From Escherichia coli (lineage in GTDB: Bacteria > Pseudomonadota > Gammaproteobacteria > Enterobacterales > Enterobacteriaceae): a DNA stretch of 64,000 bases. The stretch lies in assembly GCF_030384885.1 (NCBI RefSeq), contig NZ_CP128613.1; one strand, given 5' to 3'. This document shows positions 231 through 34,346 of this stretch, piece after piece. A program made the position numbers and the translations under genes. The number at the start of each line of letters is the position of its first letter. Positions within the stretch are counted from its first letter, which is position 1. The notes beneath the pieces were generated by a model. That model worked only from the letters and a program-made list of their open reading frames with translations. It did not search any database and was not told the origin of the DNA.

Positions 231-564
231 CACGATGTCTGAATCCTTGCCAAAAGTACTGCTGGCACTATACCAGAGAATGAACATACTGGATTGCTCC
301 AGTGTTGTGAATGAACCGTAACGCAATAAAACATATTTACTGCAATTCTTTGGCTGGTTCTTTTACGAACATCGGAAACCTGCCGCTTAAACGGTGAGTA
401 TTGGCGATAAAAATCCAATAAAACGTTCAAGGCAAAAGTAAGAAACAGACAAAGCAAAGGCCGCTCACGATATAGCCAGATAAATGACGGGGATCAATTG
501 GCTTACCCGCGATAAAATGTTACCATTCTGTTGCTTTTATGTATAAGAACAGGTAAGCCCTACC

Positions 565-1965
565 ATGCCACATTCCTACGATTACGATGCCATAGTAATA
601 GGTTCCGGCCCCGGCGGCGAAGGCGCTGCAATGGGCCTGGTTAAGCAAGGTGCGCGCGTCGCAGTTATCGAGCGTTATCAAAATGTTGGCGGCGGTTGCA
701 CCCACTGGGGCACCATCCCGTCGAAAGCTCTCCGTCACGCCGTCAGCCGCATTATAGAATTTAATCAAAACCCACTTTACAGCGACCATTCCCGACTGCT
801 CCGCTCTTCTTTTGCCGATATCCTTAACCATGCCGATAACGTGATTAATCAACAAACACGTATGCGTCAGGGATTTTACGAACGTAATCACTGTGAAATA
901 TTGCAGGGGAACGCTCGCTTTGTTGACGAGCATACGTTGGCGCTGGATTGCCCGGACGGCAGCGTCGAAACACTAACCGCTGAAAAATTTGTTATTGCCT
1001 GTGGTTCTCGCCCTTATCATCCAACAGATGTTGATTTCACCCATCCACGCATTTACGACAGCGACTCAATTCTTAGCATGCACCACGAACCGCGCCATGT
1101 ACTTATCTATGGTGCTGGAGTGATCGGCTGTGAATATGCGTCGATCTTCCGCGGTATGGATGTAAAAGTAGATCTGATCAATACCCGCGATCGCCTGCTG
1201 GCATTTCTCGATCAAGAGATGTCAGATTCTCTCTCCTATCACTTCTGGAACAGTGGTGTAGTGATTCGTCACAACGAAGAGTACGAGAAAATCGAAGGCT
1301 GTGACGACGGTGTGATCATGCATCTGAAGTCGGGTAAAAAACTGAAAGCTGACTGTCTGCTCTATGCCAACGGTCGCACCGGTAATACCGATTCGCTAGC
1401 GTTACAGAACATTGGGCTGGAAACTGACAGCCGCGGACAACTTAAAGTCAACAGCATGTACCAGACCGCACAGCCGCACGTTTACGCGGTGGGCGACGTG
1501 ATTGGTTATCCGAGCCTGGCGTCGGCGGCCTATGACCAGGGGCGCATTGCCGCGCAGGCGCTGGTGAAAGGCGAAGCCACCGCACATCTGATTGAAGATA
1601 TCCCTACCGGTATTTACACCATCCCGGAAATCAGCTCTGTGGGCAAAACCGAACAGCAGCTGACCGCGATGAAAGTGCCATATGAAGTGGGCCGCGCCCA
1701 GTTCAAACATCTGGCACGCGCACAAATCGTCGGCATGAACGTGGGCACGCTGAAAATTTTGTTCCATCGGGAAACAAAAGAGATTCTGGGCATTCACTGC
1801 TTTGGCGAGCGCGCTGCCGAAATTATTCATATCGGTCAGGCGATTATGGAACAGAAAGGTGGCGGCAACACTATTGAGTACTTCGTCAACACCACCTTTA
1901 ACTACCCGACGATGGCGGAAGCCTATCGGGTAGCCGCGTTAAACGGTTTAAACCGCCTGTTTTAA
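565..1965 (+). CDS. sthA: Soluble pyridine nucleotide transhydrogenase
   Basis: 466 aa ORF; FAD/NAD Rossmann motif IVIGSGPGG near N-terminus; matches SthA/UdhA as recalled. Confidence 0.95.
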
Positions 1966-2865
1966 CACTTTATCGAAATGGCCATCCATTCTTGCGCGGA
2001 TGGCCTCTGCCAGCTGCTCATAGCGGCTGCGCAGCGGTGAGCCCGGACGATAAACCAGGCCAATAGTGCGGCGTGGTTCCGGCTTAATACACGGCAAATA
2101 AACAACCCCATCGCGTTTGCGCTCCGGCGGCACAGCCAGTGCAGGCAGTAAAGTGATCCCGCTACCTGCCGCCACCATGTTGCGCAGAGTTTCCAGGCTG
2201 GTCGCGCGGAAGTGTGTATCTTCATCCGCCCCGGCTTCAAAGCAGAAACCCATTGCCTGATCGCGCAAACAGTGACCATCTTCCAGCATCAGCAGTTTTT
2301 CCCCTGCCAGATCGGCCATTGGTACGCATTCGCGGTTCGCCCACGGGTGATCTTCATAGATAGCCAGCAACATTGGCTCATCAAACAACGGCACTTCAAT
2401 GAATGCTTCGCTCTCTTTCACCAACGCGAGGATCACGCAATCGAGTTTGCCACTGTCCAGTTGCGCCAGTAACTGGTGGGTCTGTGCTTCATGCAGATAC
2501 ATTTCCAGCTTTGGAAAGGTCTGGTGCAGCATCGGGATAATATGTGGTAGCAGGTACGGTCCGACCGTGGGAATCAAACCAATATGCAGCGGCCCGGACA
2601 TTGTCTCGCCCTGCTGGCTTGCCATCTCTTTAAGGACTTTCACCTCACGCAGCACGGTACGCGCCTGATCCACCAGCAGCATTCCCGCCTGGGTGAATAA
2701 CACTTTACGGCTGGTCCGCTCCAGCAACATCACGCCCAGCTCATCTTCCAGCTTACGAATTTGCCCGCTAAGCGTCGGCTGGCTAACGTGGCAGGAATCT
2801 GCCGCACGCCGAAAATGACGGTGTTCAGCCAATGCCACCAGGTACTCAAGATCACGAATATTCAT
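1948..2865 (-). CDS. oxyR: LysR-type oxidative stress regulator OxyR
   Basis: ORF translation from internal Met reads [44 protein letters not shown] (305 aa form); 3' end overlaps sthA convergently. Confidence 0.95.
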
Positions 2866-2960: not shown

Positions 2961-3078
2961 GAAACGGAGCGGCACCTCTTTTAACCCTTGAAGTCACTGC
3001 CCGTTTCGAGAGTTTCTCAACTCGAATAACTAAAGCCAACGTGAACTTTTGCGGATCTCCAGGATCCGCTTTTTTTTA
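2961..3078 (+). ncRNA. oxyS: OxyS small regulatory RNA
   Basis: Sequence GAAACGGAGCGGCACCTCTTTTAACCCTTGAAGTCACTGCCCGTTTCGAGAGTTTCTCAACTCG... ending in hairpin GCGGATCTCCAGGATCCGC plus T8 matches OxyS as recalled. Confidence 0.85.
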
Positions 3079-3116
3079 TTCTACAGGCCCACAGCAAGAG
3101 AGCCTGATAGTAACAG

Positions 3117-4400
3117 TTACTCAATCCGATCTTTGACAATAAAGAAGTAACACAGCGCCCCGGTGAACGTCACACAGGCCGCGATAACCAGCGCCAGATT
3201 AAACGAGTGCGTGGTATCCACTACCCAACCGGTTACGATCGGAGCAAAGGAAGCAAAAACAAAACTGCCAAAGTTTTGAATCCCGGCGATGGAAGCCACT
3301 TTTGTTTCTGACACCATCACCTGCACCAGTCCCCATGCAGATGTTCCCGCGAAATGCACGCAGAACAGCGCCATTGAGATAAACGCTACAGCCTGGGCTG
3401 GCGAGGAGGATTGCACTACCAGCAACGTGCCTAATGCCGACATCATCAAACCGCAGACAATAGCCGTTTTACGCGTCTTCGCCAGGTCGTAGCCTTTTTT
3501 CGCCAGCCGATCGACAACAATACCGTTAACCCACATCCCGACCGCCGCCGCGAGGAAAGGAATCGCCGCCACCCAACCGGTTTTCGCCAGACTGAAGCCT
3601 TGCTCGGCTTGTAAATAACCGGGTAACCACGCGATGTAGAGCCAACCGGTATAATTGACGCCAGAGAAACCTAAAATCATCCCCCAGGTTGTCCGATGCT
3701 TAAACAGCGCCAGCCACTCGCTAAATTGTAATTGTGGACGCGGTTTAACCGGCGCGGAGAGATAGGTCCGTTCTTCGTCGGTCAGGACAAACTGCGCCCG
3801 GTTGCGATACCACGCGTACCAACAGATCCCAACCAGAATCCCCGCCACGCCGATGATGACGAACATTGCCCGCCAGCCCCATGCCAGCTGCATCAATACA
3901 AGAGCAGGAGGCGCAATAGCCTGACCGATAACGGTAGATGAGTTAAAAATCCCCAGCGCCGTGCCGCGTTCTTTTTGCGCATACCAGTCGGTGATCGACT
4001 TTACTCCCGCAGGCATAAATGGCGCTTCGCCAATACCCAGACCGATACGCATTAAAATAAAGTGGCTAAAAGAATTAACCATTCCTGTTAATGCCTGCAT
4101 TAATGACCAGAATATTAAGCCTGCGCCTAAAACTATTCGTGGGCCAAAGCGGTCTAGCAAAATACCGGAAGGGAGTTGTGAAAAACCATAAGACAGAGAA
4201 AATGCAGAAAGCAAAACGCCAAATTCTGTCGCCGATAATCCTAACTCGCCACGAATCGCTTCGCCTGCCACGCTCAATGACGAACGGTCGAGGAAATTAA
4301 CGATCCCCGCCATAAATAATAAAACCAGCGTTACTGTCTGAATACGACGAATCCGTTGCGGTTTATTACCCGCAACACTGGTTGACACATCAACGTCCAT
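3117..4400 (-). CDS. MFS transporter, anion:cation symporter-like (sugar-acid/hexuronate transporter type)
   Basis: 427 aa, multiple hydrophobic helices, MFS-type motifs; sits 66 bp downstream of the dehydratase gene on the same strand. Confidence 0.8.
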   Translation of the reverse strand: MDVDVSTSVAGNKPQRIRRIQTVTLVLLFMAGIVNFLDRSSLSVAGEAIRGELGLSATEFGVLLSAFSLSYGFSQLPSGILLDRFGPRIVLGAGLIFWSLMQALTGMVNSFSHFILMRIGLGIGEAPFMPAGVKSITDWYAQKERGTALGIFNSSTVIGQAIAPPALVLMQLAWGWRAMFVIIGVAGILVGICWYAWYRNRAQFVLTDEERTYLSAPVKPRPQLQFSEWLALFKHRTTWGMILGFSGVNYTGWLYIAWLPGYLQAEQGFSLAKTGWVAAIPFLAAAVGMWVNGIVVDRLAKKGYDLAKTRKTAIVCGLMMSALGTLLVVQSSSPAQAVAFISMALFCVHFAGTSAWGLVQVMVSETKVASIAGIQNFGSFVFASFAPIVTGWVVDTTHSFNLALVIAACVTFTGALCYFFIVKDRIE

Positions 4401-4466
4401 TTTTAGCTCCTTGAGCGGAATTAATCGATTTGCTGACTATTCAGAAAATAATTAAGCGAACCGTTA

Positions 4467-5681
4467 TTACCAGTTCCACAATGTGCCATCTTCCAGTCGT
4501 GCGACGGGGAGATACGCCGGGTCATACGGATATTTCGCCGCCAGTTTCTCATCGAAAGAAATACCCAGCCCCGGTTCATCGCCTGGGTGCATATAACCTT
4601 CATCGAAGCGCCAGCTGTGCGGGAAGACTTCAAGCATTTGTTCGGAATAGCCCATGTACTCCTGAACACCAAAGTTTGGCACCCAGAGGTCAAAATGCAG
4701 CGCCGCCGCATGACAAACAGGCGATAAATCTGAAGGGCCATGCGAACCGGTACGTACCTGATAAAGCGATGCAAAATCGGCAATCCGTCGCATCCCGGTA
4801 ATGCCGCCTGCATGGGTAATCGTCGTGCGAATATAGTCAATCAGCTGCTCTTCGATTAACTGCTTGCAGTCCCAGATACTGTTAAACACTTCACCGACCG
4901 CAATCGGCGTCACAGTATGCTGGCGAATCAGACGAAAACATTCCTGGTTCTCGGCAGGCGTCGGATCTTCCATCCAGAACAGGCGGTAATCCTCTATGCT
5001 CTTCCCAAAGCGTGCCGCTTCGATAGGAGTCAGGCGATGGTGCATGTCATGCAACAGATGTTCGTTAAAACCGAACTTATTACGCACCGCTTCAAATAAC
5101 TTCGGTGTAAAATCGAGATACTTTTCTGAAGACCACAAATGCTCTTCCGGCCACAGGCCTTTGGTTGCCGGTTCATACGCCAGTCCTTTGCCCTTCGCCA
5201 GGCCATAAGTGGTTTGCATACCCGGTACACCGCACTGCACACGAATCGCCTTAAAGCCCATCTGCTGGTGCTTTGCATAGTCTTCAAGGACTTCATCAAT
5301 CGTGCGCCCGGTGGTGTGGCAATAAACCATCACGCCTTCACGAGAAGCCCCACCAAGCAGTTGATACAATGGCATATTTGCCGCTTTGGCTTTGATATCC
5401 CACAACGCCATATCAATGGCAGAAATGGCCGACATCGTGACGGGGCCACGTCGCCAGTAAGCACCTTTATAAAAGAATTGCCAGATATCTTCAATACGGC
5501 TGGCATCGCGGCCAATTAATTGTGGACAAAGATGATCTTTCAGATAAGAAGCGACCGACAATTCGCGACCATTTAATGTGGCATCTCCCAATCCACAAAG
5601 TCCGCTTGCAGTGGTTATTTTAAGCGTAACGAAATTACGTCCTGGGCAAGTAACAAAAACATCTGCAGCAATAATTTTCAT
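4467..5681 (-). CDS. Enolase-superfamily sugar-acid dehydratase (mannonate dehydratase / RspA-like)
   Basis: Translation [59 protein letters not shown]...; start set at ATG 5679-5681 preceded by AGGAGA; the track ORF extends upstream to 5741. Confidence 0.85.
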
Positions 5682-5805
5682 TATTGCAATCTCCTGTGTT
5701 GTAAATAGACGCTTCAAACTTAATTTTACGCCTACTACCATACAAGAGAGAAAGAGCGATTATTCAACCGTGATCACATTAAAAATAAAAATTTCCGCCG
5801 AGGAG

Positions 5806-5815
5806 CCCCCCCCCC
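5806..5815. repeat. Homopolymeric C10 (G10 on coding strand) tract ~125 nt upstream of the dehydratase start
   Basis: Ten consecutive C read directly at 5806-5815. Confidence 0.9.
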
Positions 5816-6165
5816 TCAAAAACCACCTGAATAATTAACCATCATCGTTAAAACAACACGTTAAATAATCACATAACAAACTCCATTAATCATTAAAAAT
5901 GAGCGCAGCAATAGAAATGAATTATATTCAATTAATTAAAATATGTATTGATTGATGTATTGAAAATATGATTTTCATGGGGAGAGTGAAGGTAAAGAAG
6001 ACGCAAGAATAAAAAGGAATATGACAAATAATAGTTCTGGTTGGGCGTTAAATTTAAGGTCACCAGAATGCTGACAAATTTCTGCCTGAGGCAGTCCGCC
6101 TACGTAGTGTCGCTACTTTATAGGCGTGGTAAGCTCCCCATTTTCAGGGGAGCAATATAAACCAA

Positions 6166-7539
6166 TTACCCCAACCGCGCCTGCGCAAAAGCAATCGCCT
6201 GCGCCACCTGCTGCGGTGAGACGCCGCCTTTTGCCGCACGCTTGTCGAGGCACGATTGCAGCGACAGAATCGGATAGACATCTTCGCCAATCACCTGACT
6301 GAATTTCTGCAACTCACTGAGCGGCAGTTCTTCCAGCGGTTTGCCCTGACGAATGGCTTCCACCACCGCTTCACCCACAATATGATGCGCCTCGCGGAAA
6401 GGTACGCCTTTCGCCACCAGGTAATCCGCCAGTTCAGTGGCGTTGGCGTAACCCTGCTGAGCCGCTTCCTGGCAACGCGGACGTTTCACCTGAATCCCGT
6501 CCAGCACCAGCGCCGCCATATGCAGGCAGTCCAGCCAGGTATCGAGCGCGTCGAACAGACCTTCTTTATCTTCCTGCATATCTTTGTTATAGGCCAGCGG
6601 CAGACCTTTCAGCGTCATCATCATGCCGGTCAACGCGCCCTGAACACGACCGCATTTACCCCGAATCAGCTCCAGCGCATCCGGGTTTTTCTTCTGCGGC
6701 ATTAATGATGAACCGGAAGTAACACGATCAGAAAGCTCCACAAAACCCGCTTCGCCGGTGTTAAAGAAAATCAGATCTTCGGCAAAACGCGACAAATGCA
6801 CCATACCGATAGCGGCGGCAGAAAGCAGTTCCAGCACGTGGTCGCGGTCAGAAACGCTGTCGAGACTGTTACGGGTCGCCGAGGCAAAGCCCAGCCAGCC
6901 TGCTAACTGTTCACGGTCGATTTCATAGGCCGTTCCCGCCAGTGCGCCACAGCCTAACGGGCTGACATCCAGACGCTTAAGCGCATCCTGCAAACGGCTT
7001 TCATCACGCGCCAGCATCTCAACATAGGCCAGGCACCAGTGCGCAAACGTCACCGGCTGGGCGCGTTGCAGGTGAGTGTAACCAGGCATTACCGCGTCCT
7101 GATTATTCTGCGCGGTCTCGACCAGAGCGGATTGTAACTGTCGGTTAGCCGTCAGCAACTCGCTAACGGTATCCTTGCACCACAGTTTCAGGTCAGTCGC
7201 TACCTGATCATTACGGCTACGCCCGGTATGCAATTTTTTGCCTAACTGGCCCACTTTGTCGATCAGTTTGCCTTCCACCCAGCTATGGATATCTTCGGCG
7301 TCGCTTTCAAGAATTTGTTGTGGCCTGGCGCGAACATCTTCCAGCAGCACATTGAGCGCCTCTTCCAGTTGCACCTGTTCTTCTGCGGTTAACACGCCTA
7401 CCGTTACCAGCGCTTTGGACCAGGCCACAGAGCCAACAATATCCTGCTCCGCCAGACGGTAATCAAAGCGCAGTGAGTCGTTGAATTGTTTAAACCGTTG
7501 ATCTGCTGCCTGGGTAAAACGCCCGCCCCAAAGTGCCAT
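6166..7539 (-). CDS. argH: Argininosuccinate lyase
   Basis: 457 aa, [37 protein letters not shown]...; lyase signature [12 protein letters not shown]. Confidence 0.95.
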
Positions 7540-7599
7540 AACTCTGTTTCCTTATTTTGAAATTCAATGCCAGAAAGCTACGTCTCCGGCCAACAAAAC

Positions 7600-8376
7600 T
7601 TAAGCTAAAATCCGCGTACCCATCGGCATACCGTTAAACAGTGCCGGAAGCTGTTCCGCATGACGCCAGGAGGCAATATCTACCGGGCGACCCAGCGTGC
7701 GCGCAGCGTCCAGCGCCGCGTTCACTTTCACTATCATGCCGTCAGTAATAATGCCCTGCTCAATCAGTTGTTCTGCTTTCGCTGCGGTCATTTCGGCAAT
7801 ACGTTGCCCTTTGCCGTCGAGAATACCGCTGACATCAGAGAGCAAAATCAGATCCGCGCCCAGCGTTGCCGCCAGCGCCGTCGCCGCCTGGTCAGCATTG
7901 ACGTTCATCAGTTGCCCTTCGTCCGTTACGCCAATGGAGCTGACCACTGGTAGATAACCGTTTTCCAGCAACGTGTTGATAAGCTTAGGCGAACCTGGCT
8001 GCGCCAGTCCAACATGGCCTAACTCTTCATCGAGCTGGGTCACTTTTACGCTGTCGCCGTCACCGAGAAACAAACCTACGGCTGCAATCTGATGTTTCTT
8101 CGCCCATGCCAGCAGGGTTTTATTTGCCGTTCCCGCCAGCGCTCCGGTGATAATGTCTATCTGATCCGCAGGCGTCACCCGCAGGCCGTTTTTCTTTTTC
8201 ACCGGCAGATTCAGTCCTTTCATCAGCTCATCCACCACGCAGCCGCCGCCGTGGACAATCACCAGCGGACGCTGATGTGACTCGCGATAATTCACCAGGG
8301 CGCTAAACAGACGTTCCAGCGCCTCTTCACTATCCAGCAGTACGCCGCCCAGTTTGATAATTAATGGATTCATCAT
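7600..8376 (-). CDS. argB: N-acetylglutamate kinase
   Basis: [14 protein letters not shown]... amino-acid kinase family; start set at internal Met giving 258 aa. Confidence 0.9.
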
Positions 8377-8383
8377 TGCACCC

Positions 8384-9388
8384 CTAAATAAGAGACTGCG
8401 TTTCCGCATAGCCGAAACGAATATTGGCGCACTGTACCGCTTGTGCTGCCGCGCCTTTCAATAAGTTGTCTTCGGTCGCCACAATAATCAGATGTTCCCC
8501 CTGAACGGCAAAACCGATATCGCAGAACGGCAGCCCGACGACATTTTTCAGCGCCGGAACGCCTTTGTCATACAACCGTACCAGCGGTTTATGGGCATAC
8601 GCCTGCTGTAACGCTTGCGCGACTTGCGCCTGGTTCACGCCAGGCTTCAGGCGGCAGGTAATGGTTTCGAGAATGCCGCGCGGGAAATTGCCCAGATGCG
8701 GGGTAAAAATAACGTCAGCACCGAGATGCGTGGCGATCTCCGGCTGGTGGCGATGGGTAAAGACACCATACGGTTGCAGGCTAACTTCACAAAAACTATT
8801 TGAAATCGCTGCCTTACGTCCTGCTCCGCTCACACCACTGGTGGCGTTGATAACCGGCCACTGATTGAGGTCAAGAAGATCGGCATCAATCAACGGTTTC
8901 AGCGCCAATTGCGCCGCCGTCGGATAACAGCCAGGCACCGCAATTAAGTTCGCTTCTTTTAATTTATGACCGCACCACTCCGCCAGACCGTAAGCTGCCT
9001 GTTCCAACAGTTCCGGGTATTGATGGCTAAAGCCGTAATATTTTTCATAGAAGGTGGCGTCGTTAACACGAAACGCGCCGGAAAGGTCGAACACCACACA
9101 GCCCGCTTCAAGAAATTGTGGCGCTAAATCGTGACTAACTTCATGGGCAGTAGCAAGAAACACCACGTCCACCCCTGGGCTAAACTCACTGATATCCGAC
9201 ATCGGCTGCAACGGCAGATCAACGATGCCTTTTAGCTGCGGATGCAAATCGGAGATTAACTTTCCCGCATCATTGCTTTGCGCTGAAACAGTCAAAGCGG
9301 TTATGTTCATATGCGGATGGCGATTTACATAGGTCACTAGCTCTGCGCCAGCGTAACCGCTGGCACCCACAATCAGCGTATTCAACAT
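8384..9388 (-). CDS. argC: N-acetyl-gamma-glutamyl-phosphate reductase
   Basis: 334 aa, [43 protein letters not shown]... Confidence 0.95.
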
Positions 9389-9541
9389 CGGGGCTATTCA
9401 CCTTCTTATGTCTGGTTGCCTGGTTAAACGTAAAACATTCACCTTACGGCTGGTGGGTTTTATTACGCTCAACGTTAGTGTATTTTTATTCACAAATACT
9501 GCATGAATATTGATACTATCATGACCAGAGGTGTGTCAACA
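9389..9541. promoter_or_regulatory. argE / argCBH divergent control region with ARG-box-like repeats
   Basis: AT-rich imperfect palindromes (tgtatttttattcacaaatactgcatgaatattgatact) between the divergent argC and argE starts. Confidence 0.6.
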
Positions 9542-10693
9542 ATGAAAAACAAATTACCGCCATTTATCGAGATTTACCGTGCTCTGATTGCCACACCTTC
9601 AATAAGCGCCACGGAAGAGGCACTCGATCAAAGCAATGCAGATTTAATCACTCTGCTGGCGGACTGGTTTAAAGATTTGGGCTTCAATGTGGAAGTGCAG
9701 CCCGTGCCGGGAACTCGCAACAAATTTAATATGCTGGCAAGTACCGGACAGGGAGCTGGCGGTTTGCTGCTGGCGGGGCATACCGATACGGTGCCATTTG
9801 ATGACGGCCGCTGGACGCGCGATCCGTTTACGCTGACGGAGCATGACGGCAAGCTTTACGGCTTAGGCACCGCCGACATGAAAGGCTTTTTTGCGTTTAT
9901 CCTCGATGCACTACGCGATGTCGACGTCACGAAACTGAAAAAACCGCTCTACATTCTGGCGACTGCCGATGAAGAGACCAGTATGGCAGGAGCGCGTTAT
10001 TTTGCCGAAACTACCGCCCTGCGCCCGGATTGCGCCATCATTGGCGAACCGACGTCGCTGCAACCGGTACGCGCGCATAAAGGCCATATCTCGAACGCCA
10101 TCCGTATTCAGGGCCAGTCGGGGCACTCCAGCGATCCAGCACGCGGAGTTAACGCGATCGAATTGATGCACGACGCCATCGGGCATATTTTGCAATTGCG
10201 CGATAATCTGAAAGAACGTTATCACTACGAAGCATTTACCGTGCCATACCCTACGCTCAACCTCGGGCATATTCACGGTGGCGATGCATCTAACCGTATT
10301 TGCGCTTGCTGTGAGTTGCATATGGATATTCGTCCGTTGCCAGGCATGACACTCAATGAACTTAATGGTTTGCTCAACGATGCATTGGCTCCGGTGAGCG
10401 AACGCTGGCCGGGTCGTCTGACGGTCGACGAGCTGCATCCACCGATCCCTGGCTATGAATGCCCACCGAATCATCAACTGGTTGAAGTGGTTGAGAAATT
10501 GCTCGGAGCAAAGACCGAAGTAGTGAACTACTGTACCGAAGCGCCGTTTATTCAGACGTTATGCCCGACGCTGGTGCTGGGACCTGGCTCAATTAATCAG
10601 GCTCATCAGCCTGATGAATACCTGGAGACACGGTTTATCAAGCCCACCCGCGAACTGATCACCCAGGTGATTCACCATTTCTGCTGGCATTAA
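9542..10693 (+). CDS. argE: Acetylornithine deacetylase
   Basis: [23 protein letters not shown]... M20 peptidase family; start at ATG 9542 giving 383 aa. Confidence 0.9.
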
Positions 10694-10695
10694 AA

Positions 10696-10796
10696 CGTAG
10701 TCCGGATAAGGCGCTCGCGCCGCATCCGGCACTGTTGCCAAACTCCAGCACCGCAATAATGTCGGATGCGATGCTTGCGCATCTTATCCGACCTAC
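10696..10796. repeat. REP/BIME-type palindromic units (two, inverted)
   Basis: gtagtccggataaggcgctcgcgccgcatccggca and gtcggatgcgatgcttgcgcatcttatccgacctac. Confidence 0.6.
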
Positions 10797-11044
10797 ACCT
10801 TTGGTGTTACTCAAGGCGATTTTTTAACATTTCCATAAGTTACGCTTATTTAAAGCGTCGTGAATTTAATGGCGTAAATTCCTGCTATTTATTCGTTTGC
10901 TGAAGCGATTTCGCAGCATTTGACGTCATCGCTTTTACGTGGCTTTATAAAAGACGACGAAAAGCAAAGCCCGAGCATATTCGCGCCAATGCGACGTGAA
11001 GGATACAGGGCTATCAAACGATAAGATGGGGTGTCTGGGGTAAT

Positions 11045-13696
11045 ATGAACGAACAATATTCCGCATTGCGTAGTAATGTCAGTATGCTCGGCAAAGTGCT
11101 GGGGGAAACCATCAAGGATGCGTTGGGAGAACACATTCTTGAACGCGTAGAAACTATCCGTAAGTTGTCCAAATCTTCACGCGCTGGCAATGATGCTAAC
11201 CGCCAGGAGTTGCTCACCACTTTACAAAATTTGTCGAACGACGAGCTGCTGCCCGTTGCGCGTGCGTTTAGTCAGTTCCTGAACCTGGCCAACACCGCTG
11301 AGCAATACCACAGCATTTCGCCGAAAGGCGAAGCTGCCAGCAACCCGGAAGTGATCGCCCGCACCCTGCGTAAACTGAAAAACCAGCCGGAACTGAGCGA
11401 AGACACCATCAAAAAAGCAGTTGAATCGCTGTCGCTGGAACTGGTCCTCACGGCTCACCCAACCGAAATTACCCGTCGTACGCTGATCCACAAAATGGTG
11501 GAAGTGAACGCCTGCTTAAAACAGCTCGACAACAAAGATATCGCCGACTACGAACATAACCAGCTGATGCGCCGCCTGCGCCAGTTGATCGCCCAGTCAT
11601 GGCATACCGATGAAATCCGTAAGCTGCGCCCAAGCCCGGTAGATGAGGCCAAATGGGGCTTTGCCGTAGTAGAAAACAGCCTGTGGCAAGGCGTACCGAA
11701 TTACCTGCGCGAACTGAACGAACAACTGGAAGAGAACCTCGGCTACAAACTACCCGTCGAATTTGTTCCGGTGCGTTTTACCTCGTGGATGGGCGGCGAC
11801 CGCGACGGAAACCCGAACGTCACTGCCGATATCACCCGCCACGTCCTGCTGCTCAGCCGCTGGAAAGCCACCGATCTGTTCCTGAAAGATATTCAAGTTC
11901 TGGTTTCTGAACTGTCGATGGTTGAAGCAACTCCGGAACTGCTGGCGCTGGTCGGCGAAGAAGGTGCCGCAGAACCGTATCGCTATCTGATGAAAAACCT
12001 GCGTTCCCGCTTGATGGCGACACAGGCATGGCTGGAAGCGCGCCTGAAAGGTGAAGAAGTACCAAAACCAGAGGGTCTGCTGACGCAGAACGAAGAACTG
12101 TGGGAGCCGCTCTACGCTTGCTACCAGTCCCTTCAGGCGTGTGGCATGGGTATTATTGCCAACGGCGATCTGCTCGACACCCTGCGCCGCGTGAAATGTT
12201 TCGGTGTACCGCTGGTCCGTATTGATATCCGTCAGGAGAGCACCCGTCATACCGAAGCGCTGGGCGAACTGACCCGCTACCTCGGCATCGGCGACTACGA
12301 AAGCTGGTCAGAGGCCGACAAACAGGCGTTCCTGATCCGCGAACTGAACTCCAAACGCCCTCTTCTGCCGCGTAACTGGCAACCGAGCGCCGAAACGCGC
12401 GAAGTACTTGATACCTGTCAGGTAATTGCTGAAGCACCGCAAGGTTCCATTGCCGCCTACGTGATCTCGATGGCAAAAACGCCGTCCGACGTCCTGGCTG
12501 TACACCTGCTGCTGAAAGAAGCGGGTATTGGATTTGCGATGCCGGTTGCACCGCTGTTTGAAACCCTTGATGACCTGAACAACGCCAACGATGTCATGAC
12601 CCAGTTGCTCAATATCGACTGGTATCGCGGCCTGATTCAGGGCAAACAGATGGTGATGATTGGCTATTCCGACTCAGCAAAAGATGCGGGGGTGATGGCG
12701 GCTTCCTGGGCGCAATATCAGGCACAGGATGCATTAATCAAAACCTGCGAAAAAGCGGGTATTGAACTGACGCTGTTCCACGGCCGCGGCGGTTCCATTG
12801 GTCGCGGCGGCGCACCTGCCCATGCGGCGCTGCTGTCACAACCGCCAGGAAGCCTGAAAGGCGGCCTTCGCGTGACCGAACAGGGCGAGATGATCCGCTT
12901 TAAATATGGTCTGCCAGAAATCACTGTTAGCAGCCTGTCGCTGTACACCGGGGCAATTCTGGAAGCCAACCTGCTGCCACCGCCGGAGCCGAAAGAGAGC
13001 TGGCGTCGCATTATGGATGAACTGTCAGTCATCTCCTGCGATCTCTACCGTGGCTACGTACGTGAAAACAAAGATTTTGTGCCGTACTTCCGCTCCGCTA
13101 CGCCGGAACAAGAGCTGGGCAAACTGCCGTTGGGTTCACGTCCGGCGAAACGTCGCCCGACCGGCGGCGTCGAGTCACTGCGCGCCATTCCGTGGATTTT
13201 TGCCTGGACACAAAACCGCCTGATGCTCCCCGCCTGGCTGGGTGCAGGTACGGCGCTGCAAAAAGTGGTCGAAGATGGCAAGCAGAGCGAACTGGAAGCC
13301 ATGTGCCGCGACTGGCCATTCTTCTCGACGCGTCTCGGCATGCTGGAGATGGTCTTCGCCAAAGCAGACCTGTGGCTGGCGGAATACTATGATCAACGTC
13401 TGGTAGACAAAGCATTGTGGCCGTTAGGTAAAGAGTTACGTAATCTGCAAGAAGAAGACATCAAAGTGGTGCTGGCGATTGCCAACGATTCTCACCTGAT
13501 GGCCGATCTGCCGTGGATTGCGGAGTCTATTCAGCTGCGAAATATTTACACCGACCCACTGAACGTATTGCAGGCCGAGTTGCTGCACCGCTCCCGCCAG
13601 GCAGAAAAAGAAGGCCAGGAACCGGATCCTCGCGTCGAGCAAGCGTTAATGGTTACTATTGCCGGGATTGCGGCAGGTATGCGTAATACCGGCTAA
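11045..13696 (+). CDS. ppc: Phosphoenolpyruvate carboxylase
   Basis: 883 aa, [36 protein letters not shown]...; C-terminal ...GMRNTG. Confidence 0.97.
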
Positions 13697-30565: not shown

Positions 30566-31459
<894 letters not shown>

Positions 31460-31510
31460 TTACCTCATCAATCGCTTGTAGTTATATGTTGTGTTGTGCA
31501 CATCTATCCG

Positions 31511-31535
31511 TTTAGACGTCCAGATGTAAAGATGA
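31511..31535. promoter_or_regulatory. MetJ operator (met-box repeats) upstream of metF
   Basis: Tandem 8-bp AGACGTCT-like repeats ttagacgtccagatgtaaagatg just upstream of the metF start. Confidence 0.5.
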
Positions 31536-31808
31536 AGGAAAAGCTGAAGGGCGTCAACCGAAAAATGACCAATGATGGTGAGGAAAAATCAGGGAAGATG
31601 AAAAAAATTCAGGATAAAGGCCAAAGTTCCTCGTACCTGAACATGTGGAATATACCTCATTTAAGATGATATTTATTTGTTTAATTATTTTTTCTATTAA
31701 CCGGTGCAACGAGTGTTAAAGCGTGTAATTTTAGGATTATATCAATAGTCACGGTTATACAAACAGTGATAATTTATGAAATAATTTTATTTACCAGAGG
31801 AATAGCGC

Positions 31809-32783
31809 ATGTATCTTAATACTCAAGTTCAATATAATAAGTTAAATAAAGATGAAAAAAAGATCCTGTTGTTACAAAAGCTAGCCCATTTAACTGATTT
31901 TACTTTTGACAGAATAGAGACATTTTCAGCATTTGGACAATCTACTGAAACAGGTGTTTTTAAATATAAAGATGGCAATGAATTTGTTGTTGTCCCCGGG
32001 GATACAGTAATATTAGGGTGGGATGCCAGTCTCAATAATATGGATGGTCCGACAAAACAAGAATTTGAAGAGATGTTGGAACCAGAAGGTTTAGATTTGA
32101 ATAATTATCTCACCGACTCTTGCACACCTGTCAGGAAGGTTACAATTTCCCCGATGCTGGTTGAAAGAAACGTTCACGCCGAACCAAGTTGGAAGGAAGT
32201 ATCTCTTACGGACCCCCGCATCACAGAGAACAGCATGCTGCAAAAATTTCTGTCTGATTATATGGAAAAAATTAATCCTGGAGTTCACGAATTAAACGCA
32301 AGATTGAGATTACAATATATAGATGGGGATTTATTTGCACAAATATATGAATCAATTAGCTATGATGAGTTACTTCAAAATATCCAAAGCAATAGTTTTG
32401 ATCTTCCGAGCGAAGATGAATGGGAATATTTATGTGGCGGTGGTTCCAGGACACTCTGGCGCTGGGGGAATAATTTCGACTATCAAATGAAAATCCCATT
32501 TATTACTTCAGAAGAACCAACAACCTGGGATATAGAATGGCCTAATCAGTTTGGGTTGCAGATTGCATTTGATCCCTATCTTCAGGAAATTATTAATGAT
32601 AAAGATATTCTTCTGAAAGGTGGCGATGGTGGGTGCAATCTCTGCGGAGGTGCTAATGTTGTATTAGGATTCTTGCCTGTGGCAACTTATTACAAAGGAT
32701 ATAATAAACATACGGACGAATTAGAATATATGGATGACATTGGAGACAATTATACTTCTTATCGCAGAATAATTCGTTTATGA
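31809..32783 (+). CDS. Hypothetical protein, AT-rich gene; weak FGE-sulfatase (SUMF1)-like motif
   Basis: 324 aa ORF with AGAGGA RBS; motif LPSEDEWEYLCGGGSRTLWRWGNNFD resembles the FGE-domain EWEY...GG core; no other FGE signatures recognised. Confidence 0.6.
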   Translation: MYLNTQVQYNKLNKDEKKILLLQKLAHLTDFTFDRIETFSAFGQSTETGVFKYKDGNEFVVVPGDTVILGWDASLNNMDGPTKQEFEEMLEPEGLDLNNYLTDSCTPVRKVTISPMLVERNVHAEPSWKEVSLTDPRITENSMLQKFLSDYMEKINPGVHELNARLRLQYIDGDLFAQIYESISYDELLQNIQSNSFDLPSEDEWEYLCGGGSRTLWRWGNNFDYQMKIPFITSEEPTTWDIEWPNQFGLQIAFDPYLQEIINDKDILLKGGDGGCNLCGGANVVLGFLPVATYYKGYNKHTDELEYMDDIGDNYTSYRRIIRL

Positions 32784-32864
32784 GTAAAAATTATATTTCA
32801 GGACAAGAAGTTATGCTCGAGTCAAGCTAATGAATTGCTTAACGCAAGGAATAAAAACGTATTG

Positions 32865-34346
32865 ATGAACACTGGGAATTTCGAGTCGATACAAATCATG
32901 ATCGCCGCGCAAGAGTGGCGTAGCCTGCCGCTGCATCTGCGTTTGTATCAGGCTTTTCGTCAGTTGGTGATTTCTGGCGCGTTGTCTGATGGCGCAAAAC
33001 TGCCGTCCGCTCGCGCACTGGCCCAGCAACTGCACCTTTCCAGAGATACCATCGAAAATGCCTATTCCCAGCTCCACCGCGACGGTTTTATGGCTCGCAG
33101 GCAGGGGGCCGGGAGTTTCGCCAGCCGCCAGGGGATACCGCATATTCAGGGCCAGCATGCGCAACCACCCTCGCCCGGACAAGTACCGGCTTTAAGCGCT
33201 CGCTGGCAGCCAATTGCCGATCGCGCAGTCTCTTTCGATGCCCGCCAGATGCAGACCTTTACGCTTGGCCTGCCGGAAACGCGAAACTTCCCGCTAAACA
33301 TTTGGCAGAACTTTTCCCGCCAGATCCAACGTGAGCAGGCGCATACGCTGATGTTAAATAGCGATCCGCAGGGCGAGCCACAGCTGCGCCAGCAAATTGC
33401 GCATTACCTTAATTTTGAACGCGGCGCGAAGGTAGATGCCGGGCAGATTGTGATTGTCAGCGGCGCACGGCAGGCGTTCTGGCTGTGCGGGCAACTGCTG
33501 GCAGAGGCCGGACAGTCGGTGGCGATGGAAAATCCGGGCTATCCCGGCGCGCGTCAGGCGTTTTCTGCCGCACAGCTTAATCTTCTTCCCGTTGAAGTGG
33601 ATGACGCCGGGATCCGGGTGGATAAACTGCCGCCCGCGCCGCTGGTTTACGTCACGCCCTCGCACCAGTTTCCTTCCGGTCATTTGCTCACGCTGGCGCG
33701 GCGTCATGCCCTGATTGCCTGGGCGCAGGCGCACAATGCATGGATTATCGAAGACGACTACGACAGCGAATTTCACTACACCAGCGCGCCCGTCGCCTGT
33801 CTGCAAGGGTTAGACTGCGAGCAACGCACCCTGTATGTCGGCACTTTCAGCAAAACGCTCTATCCCGGCCTGCGCATCGGTTATCTGGTGGTGCCGACGT
33901 CGCTGGCTGCGCACTTTGCCGCCGCGCGTAATTTGCTTGATGGCGCAACGCCTGCGTTATCCCAACTAACGCTGGCGCGATTTATCGAGTCCGGTCATTT
34001 TGCCGCCCATATTCGCAACATGCGCAGTATGTACGCAGTGCGACAGGCGAGCCTGGCAGAGGCTATTCATCAACACTTAAGTGAATGGGTCACGCCAGTG
34101 GTGACATCCGGTGGGTTACAAATGCCCTGCTGGCTGCATGAAGGTATTGATGAGCAACAGACGCTAAATGCCGCGCGCCGCGCCGGGTTAAACATCGCCG
34201 GAATGCGCCAGTTCTGGCTGACGCACCCCGCGCCCGCGGGCTGGCTGCTGGGATTTGCCGCCTTTACCCCCTACGAGATTGAACAGGGCGTCAAGCGTCT
34301 GCGGGCTGCATTATGCACTGAAAACGTGCGCCCAGCCGGGTCATAA
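32865..34346 (+). CDS. MocR/GntR-family regulator with fused PLP aminotransferase-like domain
   Basis: N-terminal GntR HTH (…LPSARALAQQLHLSRDTIENAYSQLHRDGFMARRQGAGSFAS…) and large C-terminal fold-type-I-like domain; start ambiguous (TTG 32835, ATG 32865 or 32898). Confidence 0.8.
   Translation: MNTGNFESIQIMIAAQEWRSLPLHLRLYQAFRQLVISGALSDGAKLPSARALAQQLHLSRDTIENAYSQLHRDGFMARRQGAGSFASRQGIPHIQGQHAQPPSPGQVPALSARWQPIADRAVSFDARQMQTFTLGLPETRNFPLNIWQNFSRQIQREQAHTLMLNSDPQGEPQLRQQIAHYLNFERGAKVDAGQIVIVSGARQAFWLCGQLLAEAGQSVAMENPGYPGARQAFSAAQLNLLPVEVDDAGIRVDKLPPAPLVYVTPSHQFPSGHLLTLARRHALIAWAQAHNAWIIEDDYDSEFHYTSAPVACLQGLDCEQRTLYVGTFSKTLYPGLRIGYLVVPTSLAAHFAAARNLLDGATPALSQLTLARFIESGHFAAHIRNMRSMYAVRQASLAEAIHQHLSEWVTPVVTSGGLQMPCWLHEGIDEQQTLNAARRAGLNIAGMRQFWLTHPAPAGWLLGFAAFTPYEIEQGVKRLRAALCTENVRPAGS

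Follow-up and report, generated by a model that had tools for sequence, protein, structure and literature searches.

The two genes lying between argH and oxyS in the stretch of Escherichia coli DNA analyzed here (64,000 nucleotides, hereafter the window) probably form a vertically inherited operon, encoding a ManD/RspA-type dehydratase and an MFS transporter, that has occupied this site since before Escherichia diversified, was lost in part of E. coli, and would serve the RspR/CRP-controlled import of a hexonate and its conversion by ManD into 2-keto-3-deoxy-D-gluconate (KDG). Among 5,426 complete E. coli genomes, 1,860 (34%) carried the module, CFT073 included, and all 10 of the empty sites sampled held an identical 54-bp filler.

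Alignment to the empty site delimited the module segment to positions 3078–6165 of the window, where 3,088 bp stand in place of the 54 bp of the empty allele (Table 1); an earlier note on this DNA, starting the segment at 3079, had located it properly except for a left edge that was one base off. In K-12 MG1655, argH ends at 4158223 and oxyS starts at 4158278, so the note had rightly stated that oxyS adjoins argH there, and the 54-bp gap leaves K-12 without the two genes at this position. The filler shares with the module ends a sole stretch, TTTATAT, beside the argH stop codon. According to the terminator scan and the junction alignment, the left edge of the indel is the terminator hairpin and T-run of oxyS (3051–3077), which is transcribed convergently with the MFS gene. 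On the other side, the K-12 argH terminator is replaced by a different hairpin, which is followed by a U-poor tail and then by a degraded REP-like element, and which is kept in the aligned loci L003, L005, and L006. The longest open reading frame of manD spans 4467–5741 on the minus strand; 5681 was taken as the true start because the NCBIfam alignment begins at residue 21 and because of the RefSeq annotation of strain 2013C-4282 (99.9% identical). Since the rsp-type motif was found once in the whole window, and a second promoter motif was absent from the intergenic spacer, we read manD and the MFS gene as one operon. The neighboring oxyR corresponds to c4922 in CFT073, according to one paper.

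Table 1. Features of the argH–oxyS interval and its flanks (window positions).
Feature	Position	Strand	Remarks
oxyR	1948–2865	-	gene call
oxyS sRNA	2961–3070	+	Rfam RF00035, 139.5 bits (gathering score 75)
MFS transporter	3117–4400	-	427 aa; second gene of the presumed operon
manD/MFS intergenic spacer	4401–4466	-	66 nt
ManD/RspA-type dehydratase	4467–5681	-	404 aa; first gene of the presumed operon
Leader	5682–6165		484 bp, AT-rich
Predicted -10 hexamer TAAGTT	5717–5722	-	17 nt downstream of TTGTAT
12-mer CTTGTATGGTAG	5735–5746	-	contains -35 hexamer TTGTAT (5740–5745) and right half of RspR box
CRP-like site TGTGATCACGGTTGAA	5763–5778	-	left half perfect
AT-rich leader core	5780–6060		~31% GC
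G10 run (C10 on + strand)	5806–5815	-	G/T tract in leader
Upstream block TTAACGTGTTGTTTTAACG	5846–5864	-	from alignment; common to Escherichia and Citrobacter sp. R56
Hairpin GCTCCCC-TGAAAAT-GGGGAGC	6133–6153	-	just 3' of argH stop codon
argH (right flank)	6166–7539	-	gene call

The absence of the module from K-12 gives the segment the appearance of an insertion, and the earlier note had described it as such, assigning the pair to the flexible genome. Variable presence was borne out by the genome counts, and the claim of insertion was not. E. whittamii, Escherichia sp. E1V33, and Escherichia sp. MOD1-EC7003 carry the module at this position as well, and Citrobacter sp. R56 has, again at this site, an intact promoter and MFS gene together with a manD from which the interior is deleted, residues 1–32 being fused to residues 371–404. 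Between the window and L003, L005, and L006, respectively, dS was 0.11, 0.16, and 0.39 for ManD and 0.11, 0.27, and 0.26 for the MFS protein, against 0.19, 0.30, and 0.30 for argH, so that the module follows its flanks at every depth compared. The GC contents of the two genes (0.499 and 0.512) are close to that of the window (0.508), the segment ends showed only chance-level matches when examined for flanking direct or inverted repeats, and no integrase, tRNA, or mobility gene was found at the module. Most likely, therefore, the site was occupied ancestrally and K-12 shows a derived loss, a direction that rests on few outgroups; the genome-contig scan made with the MFS listed no representative of E. 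albertii, E. fergusonii, and Salmonella. The MFS homologue search returned mostly Raoultella entries and no further argH–oxyS contexts. In addition, all four combinations of the module indel with the neighboring sthA–fabR indel exist, and the loss in part of E. coli, K-12 among them, probably represents a single deletion/replacement allele that was later shuffled among lineages by recombination.

Recent horizontal transfer of an island into the oxyS–argH interval of some E. coli lineages would account for the presence of the module in only about a third of genomes, for the AT-rich leader, and for a ManD that is closer to the RspA of Enterobacter and Pluralibacter (93–94% identity) than to that of E. 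coli (91%). However, occupancy of this site in one Citrobacter and in three species of Escherichia besides E. coli, the agreement of dS with the flanks, and the normal GC without terminal repeats, integrase, or tRNA all speak against it, and in a neighbor-joining tree the module ManD clade is not nested in a donor genus but is sister to all 13 RspA orthologues, outside all enterobacterial RspA. Recent transfer is thus already largely refuted, and we regard it as highly improbable.

Both module genes are under strong purifying selection. Their dN/dS was 0.012–0.050 (ManD, 0.014–0.050; MFS, 0.012–0.028), compared with 0–0.029 for argH and oxyR, and no stop codon interrupted any of the 17 ManD and five MFS sequences translated. 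These values, reached at dS up to 0.39 and at the level of argH and oxyR, are incompatible with long-term neutrality, and weigh against the possibility that the operon is a cryptic, effectively silent, and functionless relic in the course of being lost, perhaps silenced by H-NS through its AT-rich leader. Such a relic would fit the 66% of E. coli genomes that have no module, the sporadic disrupted copies (a 263-bp deletion in the MFS gene of DSM 101139, besides the truncated manD of Citrobacter sp. R56), the failure of a simple scan to find a strong sigma-70 consensus, and the suggestion, reportedly made by Wichelecki et al. 2014, that pathways of low-efficiency ManDs may be relics. Yet the promoter elements are also invariant from Escherichia to Citrobacter, and we think it quite unlikely that the operon is functionless.

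Both protein identities proposed in the earlier note, an MFS transporter and an RspA-like dehydratase of the enolase superfamily, were upheld by Pfam, NCBIfam, and PDB matches. The dehydratase has the two-domain organization of that superfamily (MR_MLE_N PF02746, 6.7e-34; MR_MLE_C PF13378, 1.1e-45), scored 730.9 bits against the NCBIfam equivalog model for ManD (NF043051, cut-off 550) and 805 bits against NF011654 (cut-off 430), and matched RspA of E. coli CFT073 (PDB 4IL2), its closest assayed relative, over the full length with 896 bits. Residues R147, Y159, D212, H214, E238, and E264 are all present, which, with roles and numbering following Rakus et al. 2007, we take to be the Tyr-Arg dyad, the D/E/E ligands of Mg2+, and the general-acid His. 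E. coli RspA shares 91.3% identity with the dehydratase but 93–95% with the other RspA orthologues, and dS between module manD and E. coli rspA was 1.87. These values and the tree position mark the module protein as an old RspA paralogue that lies outside the RspA orthologue clade. It also belongs to the same subgroup and fold as the high-efficiency ManDs of the glucuronate pathway (Novosphingobium, 2QJJ; Caulobacter, 4GME), matching them at ~610 bits and with the same catalytic residues. High-efficiency ManDs stand in for UxuA where the latter is absent, whereas E. coli has UxuA for D-mannonate and its RspA-type enzymes are of low efficiency; the physiological role of these low-efficiency enzymes reportedly could not be established.

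The second protein was recognized as MFS_1 (Pfam PF07690, 2.8e-56), and its best match among solved structures was DgoT (PDB 6E9N; 4e-57, residues 13–424), the D-galactonate:H+ symporter of E. coli (6E9N/6E9O), an ACS/SLC17-type MFS protein. In the alignment with DgoT, the TM1 D-R pair and the GxxEAP glutamate both have counterparts in the protein (as LDR and GEAP); in DgoT the residues concerned, D46, R47, and E133, reportedly serve in proton coupling and carboxylate binding (Leano et al. 2019). On these grounds the protein is classed as an anion:cation symporter (ACS) of DgoT-like type. It differs from DgoT in that only about one third of positions are identical (as read from the alignment) and in that its top NCBIfam match, TIGR00893, a curated model of the D-galactonate-transporter subfamily, stays at 275.3 bits, below the cut-off of 395. 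Closer relatives were found in other genera: the protein is 82–89% identical to the MFS transporter adjoining rspA, near ynfA, in Enterobacter, Klebsiella, Raoultella, Pluralibacter, Lelliottia, and Siccibacter, and it is the orthologue of the transporter in the rsp operons of other Enterobacteriaceae. In the rspAB locus of E. coli, which we inspected, an MFS gene of this type is not present.

The comparison with rsp loci places the module more precisely. E. coli rspAB lies at ynfA-rspA-rspB (L025), pairs RspA with the Zn-dehydrogenase RspB, and is repressed by RspR (YdfH), whereas the module lies at argH-manD-MFS-oxyS and pairs its dehydratase, an older, separate paralogue that is 91% identical along the full length and has the same catalytic residues, with a transporter. 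Elsewhere the gene order at ynfA is MFS > rspA > rspB in Enterobacter, Klebsiella, Raoultella, and Pluralibacter, and rspA > MFS in Lelliottia and Siccibacter. These loci contain the same adjacent pair of gene families (ManD, 91–94% identity) and the same promoter cassette, and in addition to rspB they comprise more transporters, a mannitol-dehydrogenase-family enzyme, and often a nearby rspR. In contrast, the module of E. coli is reduced to the two genes, lies elsewhere on the chromosome, has no linked regulator, and is present in only a third of genomes, whereas rspR is core (5,416 of 5,426 genomes).

The leader upstream of manD has 36.2% GC and its core 31.3%, against 50.8% for the whole window, in agreement with the AT-rich promoter region reported earlier. 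A simple sigma-70 scan of the leader found no strong consensus promoter, and the promoter was therefore deduced from homology to rspA. The layout TGTGATCAC - 23 nt - CTTGTATGGTAGTAG is common to both, and the module promoter is, by sequence, homologous to that of rspA. The CRP-like site and the 12-mer are separated by 32 nt, start to start, a distance identical to that at E. coli rspA, whose CRP-like site is centered at -60.5. The window contains a single TGTGA-N27-CTTGTATGGTAG combination (0.01 expected by chance); this combination is found in all 25 of the rsp-type promoters listed as well as in the module, and precedes rspA or the MFS gene in each rsp locus examined. In rspA, the published RspR footprint of 31 bp encloses the 12-mer, which there runs from -36 to -25 as counted from the mapped start, and the RspR box has been defined as the palindrome ATACnnGTAT (PMC8249747). 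By analogy with this mapped promoter, from which the -10 hexamer was also deduced, transcription of the module is predicted to start near 5710, ~30 nt upstream of the ATG. A KdgR-type site and a full CRP palindrome in the leader, considered by eye without validated matrices, were dropped as their spacing did not fit.

One element differs. At the position of the RspR box the module has TCTCTTGTAT, in which the right half is kept and the left half-site is missing, so that the published palindrome is not reproduced and binding by RspR may be weak or none. This feature, together with the second conserved block upstream (TTAACGTGTTGTTTTAACG), would be compatible with a functional operon that is wired otherwise, with CRP and another factor acting at the upstream block. 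Likewise, the ManD clade has 10 clade-specific substitutions, two of which, Q156 and L161, lie in the active-site loop on either side of the catalytic Y159, and specificity for mannonate or gluconate varies among members of the ManD subgroup, so that D-gluconate or L-idonate-derived intermediates might be the substrate. Nevertheless, the ATA left half is likewise absent from the MFS-first rsp promoters of other genera, which preserve the 12-mer at the same spacing and belong to genuine rsp operons located beside rspR, and the module's TCT-CTTGTATGG resembles their MFS-proximal TT-CTTGTATGG type; besides, the NF043051 score is far over the cut-off and identity to RspA is 91%. We therefore consider another wiring or substrate unlikely, though less so than the readings discussed above, and retain an RspR- and CRP-controlled operon for mannonate as the more probable reading.

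We infer the substrate, the transport, the control by RspR and CRP, and the transcription start as follows. First, a sigma-70 promoter homologous to that of rspA would drive the operon, its -35 hexamer lying inside the RspR-operator-like 12-mer and its CRP-like site in the class I position known from rspA; such a layout suggests that expression needs cAMP-CRP together with relief from the core, unlinked GntR-family repressor RspR. Second, the DgoT-like transporter would import a hexonate by proton coupling, D-mannonate being the simplest candidate and L-gulonate a possible one that would draw on the core enzymes RspB and YdfI/UxuB. Third, ManD would convert D-mannonate into KDG, which the core enzymes KdgK and Eda could turn into pyruvate and glyceraldehyde-3-phosphate. 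Hexonate import and conversion of D-mannonate into KDG under CRP and RspR is, from the sequence evidence, the most likely role of the operon, and the sugar-acid function suggested in the earlier note is consistent with the ManD family and the DgoT-like transporter. Counting against this proposal are the two thirds of E. coli genomes without the module, the disrupted copies in DSM 101139 and Citrobacter sp. R56, the low efficiency reported for RspA-type ManDs, the UxuA that E. coli already has, and the transporter's sub-threshold TIGR00893 score. The literature searched yielded no paper specific to the module and no start, binding, expression, or growth data on the operon.

The apparent insertion relative to K-12 thus probably reflects the derived state of K-12, which would be a reduced reference here. 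On the basis of K-12 DNA alone, RspR has been called a regulator with a single target, and it probably has a second target in about one third of E. coli genomes, including the uropathogenic CFT073. In addition, the MFS protein is a candidate for the transporter missing from the E. coli rsp pathway, which could help to explain the apparently cryptic catabolism of L-gulonate and D-mannonate via RspAB and guide substrate screening; the general understanding of such systems is unchanged by all this.

Finally, the G/T tract of the leader is hypervariable among near-identical alleles. A G3TGT6 stretch, ~35–45 bp upstream of the CRP-like site, became a pure G run stepwise in the sub-lineage of the window, through G4T7, G6T5, and G9T to G10. 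It might be speculated, with very little probability, that this is a contingency-type homopolymer at birth, tuning or phase-varying the aldonate operon, as a second and strain-specific RspR target, by altering how the conserved upstream block is phased with the promoter. The run was G10 or G8 between strains otherwise identical over the 3,088 bp.

The manD and MFS transporter gene pair (hereafter the module) is real and correctly located: alignment with the K-12-type empty site showed that 3,088 bp of the window (3078-6165) stand against 54 bp, which confirmed almost to the base the position between oxyS and argH given in an earlier note. The absence of the pair from K-12 was likewise borne out, MG1655 having 54 bp between the end of argH and oxyS, and so was the AT-rich region ahead of the dehydratase (GC content of 36% in the 484-bp leader and 31% in the leader core, against 51% in the window). 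RefSeq annotates the pair as manD plus an MFS transporter, and both genes are members of known families. The dehydratase start was taken as the downstream of two candidates, because the alignments to the family models begin at residue 21 and 404 aa is the length that RefSeq annotates in the 99.9% identical strain 2013C-4282.

Coordinates of features in the window, with equivalents in other loci
Feature	Position	Strand	Remark
oxyR	1948-2865	minus	
oxyS	2961-3070	plus	
MFS transporter	3117-4400	minus	
ManD-type dehydratase	longest ORF from 5741, start taken as 5681	minus	404 aa
argH	6166-7539	minus	
Module TTGTAT	5740-5745		
Module TAAGTT	5717-5722		17 nt on from TTGTAT
G/T tract	5806-5815		C10 on plus strand
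REP-like elements	6085-6130		equivalents in L003 (B2-like allele), L005 (Escherichia sp. E1V33), L006 (E. whittamii)
sthA-fabR indel	about 234-564		fabR-sthA intergenic region; L031 (indel locus) 30897-33422; L003 1-336
MFS deletion of E. coli DSM 101139 (L035)	3573-3835		window-equivalent position
manD remnant of Citrobacter sp. R56	L020 7693-7885		

The proposal that the pair had been inserted at this site was not supported, as the same site is occupied in other Escherichia and in Citrobacter sp. R56, and dS tracks the flanks. Species-representative genomes were scanned once with the MFS gene as query, and the order argH-manD-MFS-oxyS-oxyR was kept in E. whittamii and Escherichia sp. E1V33; Escherichia sp. 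MOD1-EC7003 showed manD-MFS-oxyS-oxyR, its locus ending inside manD. Citrobacter sp. R56 retained the MFS gene at this site, and the 840-bp gap upstream of it contained the module's promoter together with what is left of manD, codons 1-32 joined in frame to codons 371-404. Synonymous divergence of the window from the B2-like allele, sp. E1V33 and E. whittamii, respectively, was 0.11, 0.16 and 0.39 for manD, 0.11, 0.27 and 0.26 for the MFS gene, and 0.19, 0.30 and 0.30 for argH, so that the module genes were in step with the flanks at each depth compared. Their dN/dS values (0.012-0.050) fell in the same range as those of argH and oxyR, the GC content of the module was normal, and neither terminal repeats nor mobility genes were found at it. 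For the species matched in the scan, among which the representatives of several Escherichia species and of Salmonella did not figure, the simplest reading is that the occupied site is ancestral and the empty site a derived loss. The polarity is thereby reversed, K-12 having presumably lost the module.

Carriers (80% or more of the module at the oxyS-argH site) made up 1,860 of the 5,426 complete E. coli genomes, and the remainder had the empty site. The allele class of the window (at least 99% identity) comprised 155 genomes, and the other carriers were mostly 96-97% identical to its module. CFT073 (phylogroup B2) is a carrier (C_RS23255 and C_RS23260); since its oxyR is c4922, we infer that the module genes were formerly tagged c4920 and c4921. 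All ten empty sites read, including K-12 and O157:H7, had the same 54-bp filler, differing by one SNP at most, which points to a single empty allele. Sporadic decay of the module is exemplified by DSM 101139, in which a 263-bp deletion left a truncated MFS reading frame. About 3 kb from the module, a second, small indel between sthA and fabR comprises two genes, annotated by RefSeq as an M20 aminoacylase and a citrate-proton symporter, which are present in CFT073 and other strains and missing from the window and K-12. All four presence/absence combinations of the two indels occur, therefore recombination has shuffled these alleles.

ManD scored 731 bits against the NCBIfam ManD equivalog (cut-off 550), aligned end to end with CFT073 RspA (PDB 4IL2), and contained the catalytic residues Arg147/Tyr159, Asp212, His214, Glu238 and Glu264. 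The four Escherichia module sequences formed their own clade in a neighbour-joining tree, outside all 13 RspA orthologues, E. coli RspA among them, and dS between manD and E. coli rspA was saturated (1.87). The separate clade and saturated dS indicate the paralogy added here: ManD is an old paralogue, neither an RspA orthologue nor a recent duplicate. Ten residues fixed in the module clade were found in no RspA sequence, and two of them, Q156 and L161, lie on either side of Tyr159.

The closest match of the transporter was the D-galactonate/H+ symporter DgoT (6E9N, 4e-57), with which it shares an aligned Asp-Arg pair and the GxxEAP glutamate. Its score fell below the curated cut-off of the DgoT subfamily model. 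Its orthology to rsp-locus transporters is also added here. An MFS gene 82-89% identical adjoins ynfA, ahead of rspA-rspB, in Enterobacter, Pluralibacter, Klebsiella, Raoultella and a Citrobacter; rspA precedes the MFS gene in Lelliottia and Siccibacter; and in Enterobacter sp. kpr-6 a manD-MFS pair adjoins a GntR/FCD regulator that is the rspR orthologue. As E. coli rspAB lacks such a transporter, the module joins a second RspA-type enzyme to a transporter normally belonging to the rsp system.

The last ~100 bp ahead of manD aligned with the promoter of E. coli rspA, and the two share TGTGATCAC, then 23 nt, then CTTGTATGGTAGTAG. The arrangement TGTGA-N27-CTTGTATGGTAG preceded rspA and/or the MFS gene in all rsp loci retrieved (25 promoters) and had a single occurrence in the 64-kb window, where chance would give 0.01. 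From Escherichia to Citrobacter R56 it was unchanged within a leader that had otherwise diverged. K-12 rspA has a 31-bp footprint of the repressor RspR centred on ATACnnGTAT and a transcription start mapped 30 nt upstream of the ATG, and is derepressed in an rspR mutant (Shimada et al., PMC8249747). Counted from that published start, its -35 hexamer is TTGTAT (-35 to -30), its -10 hexamer TAGATT, and its TGTGA site is centred at -60.5. In the module, the 17-nt spacing of TTGTAT and TAAGTT predicts that manD transcription starts about 30 nt before the ATG. Unlike the K-12 box, the module lacks the left half-site's ATA and has TCT-CTTGTAT, and MFS-proximal rsp promoters of other genera lack this ATA as well. 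Judging from the promoter sequence, RspR control of the module is likely, and rspR is core (5,416 of 5,426 genomes). The promoter common to rspA and the module thus adds a predicted strain-specific second RspR target. Lelliottia nimipressuralis and Raoultella ornithinolytica have an extra (third) copy of the 12-mer CTTGTATGGTAG followed by ...GATGTCATACCAATTG. This resembles a UxuR/ExuR operator, a hint that another gene of the hexuronate/hexonate network is jointly controlled.

The results shown are at the level of sequence, and from them we infer the substrate, transport and regulation of the module. The two genes would be transcribed in a CRP-dependent, RspR-repressible manner, a hexonate would be imported by proton coupling, and D-mannonate, the putative substrate, would be dehydrated to KDG, which would enter the core KdgK/Eda route, an established pathway. 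Alternatively, L-gulonate might feed in by way of RspB and YdfI/UxuB, a route that reportedly goes back to Wichelecki and colleagues in 2014.

Upstream of the manD promoter, a hypervariable G/T tract reads G3TGT6 in most carriers including CFT073 (B2), which is the ancestral state, and, as relatedness increases, G4T7, G6T5, G9T, G10 (window) and G8. Its 11 bp contain about 8 of the 21 differences that separate the window from the next allele class, and the sole difference from the nearest strain, 2013C-4282, across 3,088 bp is G8 versus G10. Growth of the run by T-to-G changes at its edge, followed by length change, fits dislocation or slippage mutagenesis, and the last step (G10/G8) may be a homopolymer sequencing error. 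The REP-like elements that follow argH differ among alleles in how many copies are present and how complete these are, being degraded in the window and intact in one or two copies in L003, L005 and L006, and this variation accounts for most leader length differences. On the 3' side of argH, carriers have a hairpin with a U-poor tail in place of the K-12 terminator. The MFS gene and oxyS converge, with only 46 nt between the MFS stop codon and the oxyS 3' end, and no intrinsic terminator for the manD-MFS transcript was evident ahead of oxyS (window 3051-3116, no U-tailed candidate), so read-through would go antisense to oxyS, towards oxyR.

In addition, window 6166-13000 and beyond (argH, argB, argC, argE, ppc) was unusually diverged for a within-species comparison, with 92-97% identity per kb to CFT073 and 91.9% in the kb holding most of argE. 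For argH, identity between the window and K-12 was 95.6%, against 97.0% between K-12 and a B2-like strain; this stretch may have been imported by recombination or may reflect a deep lineage.
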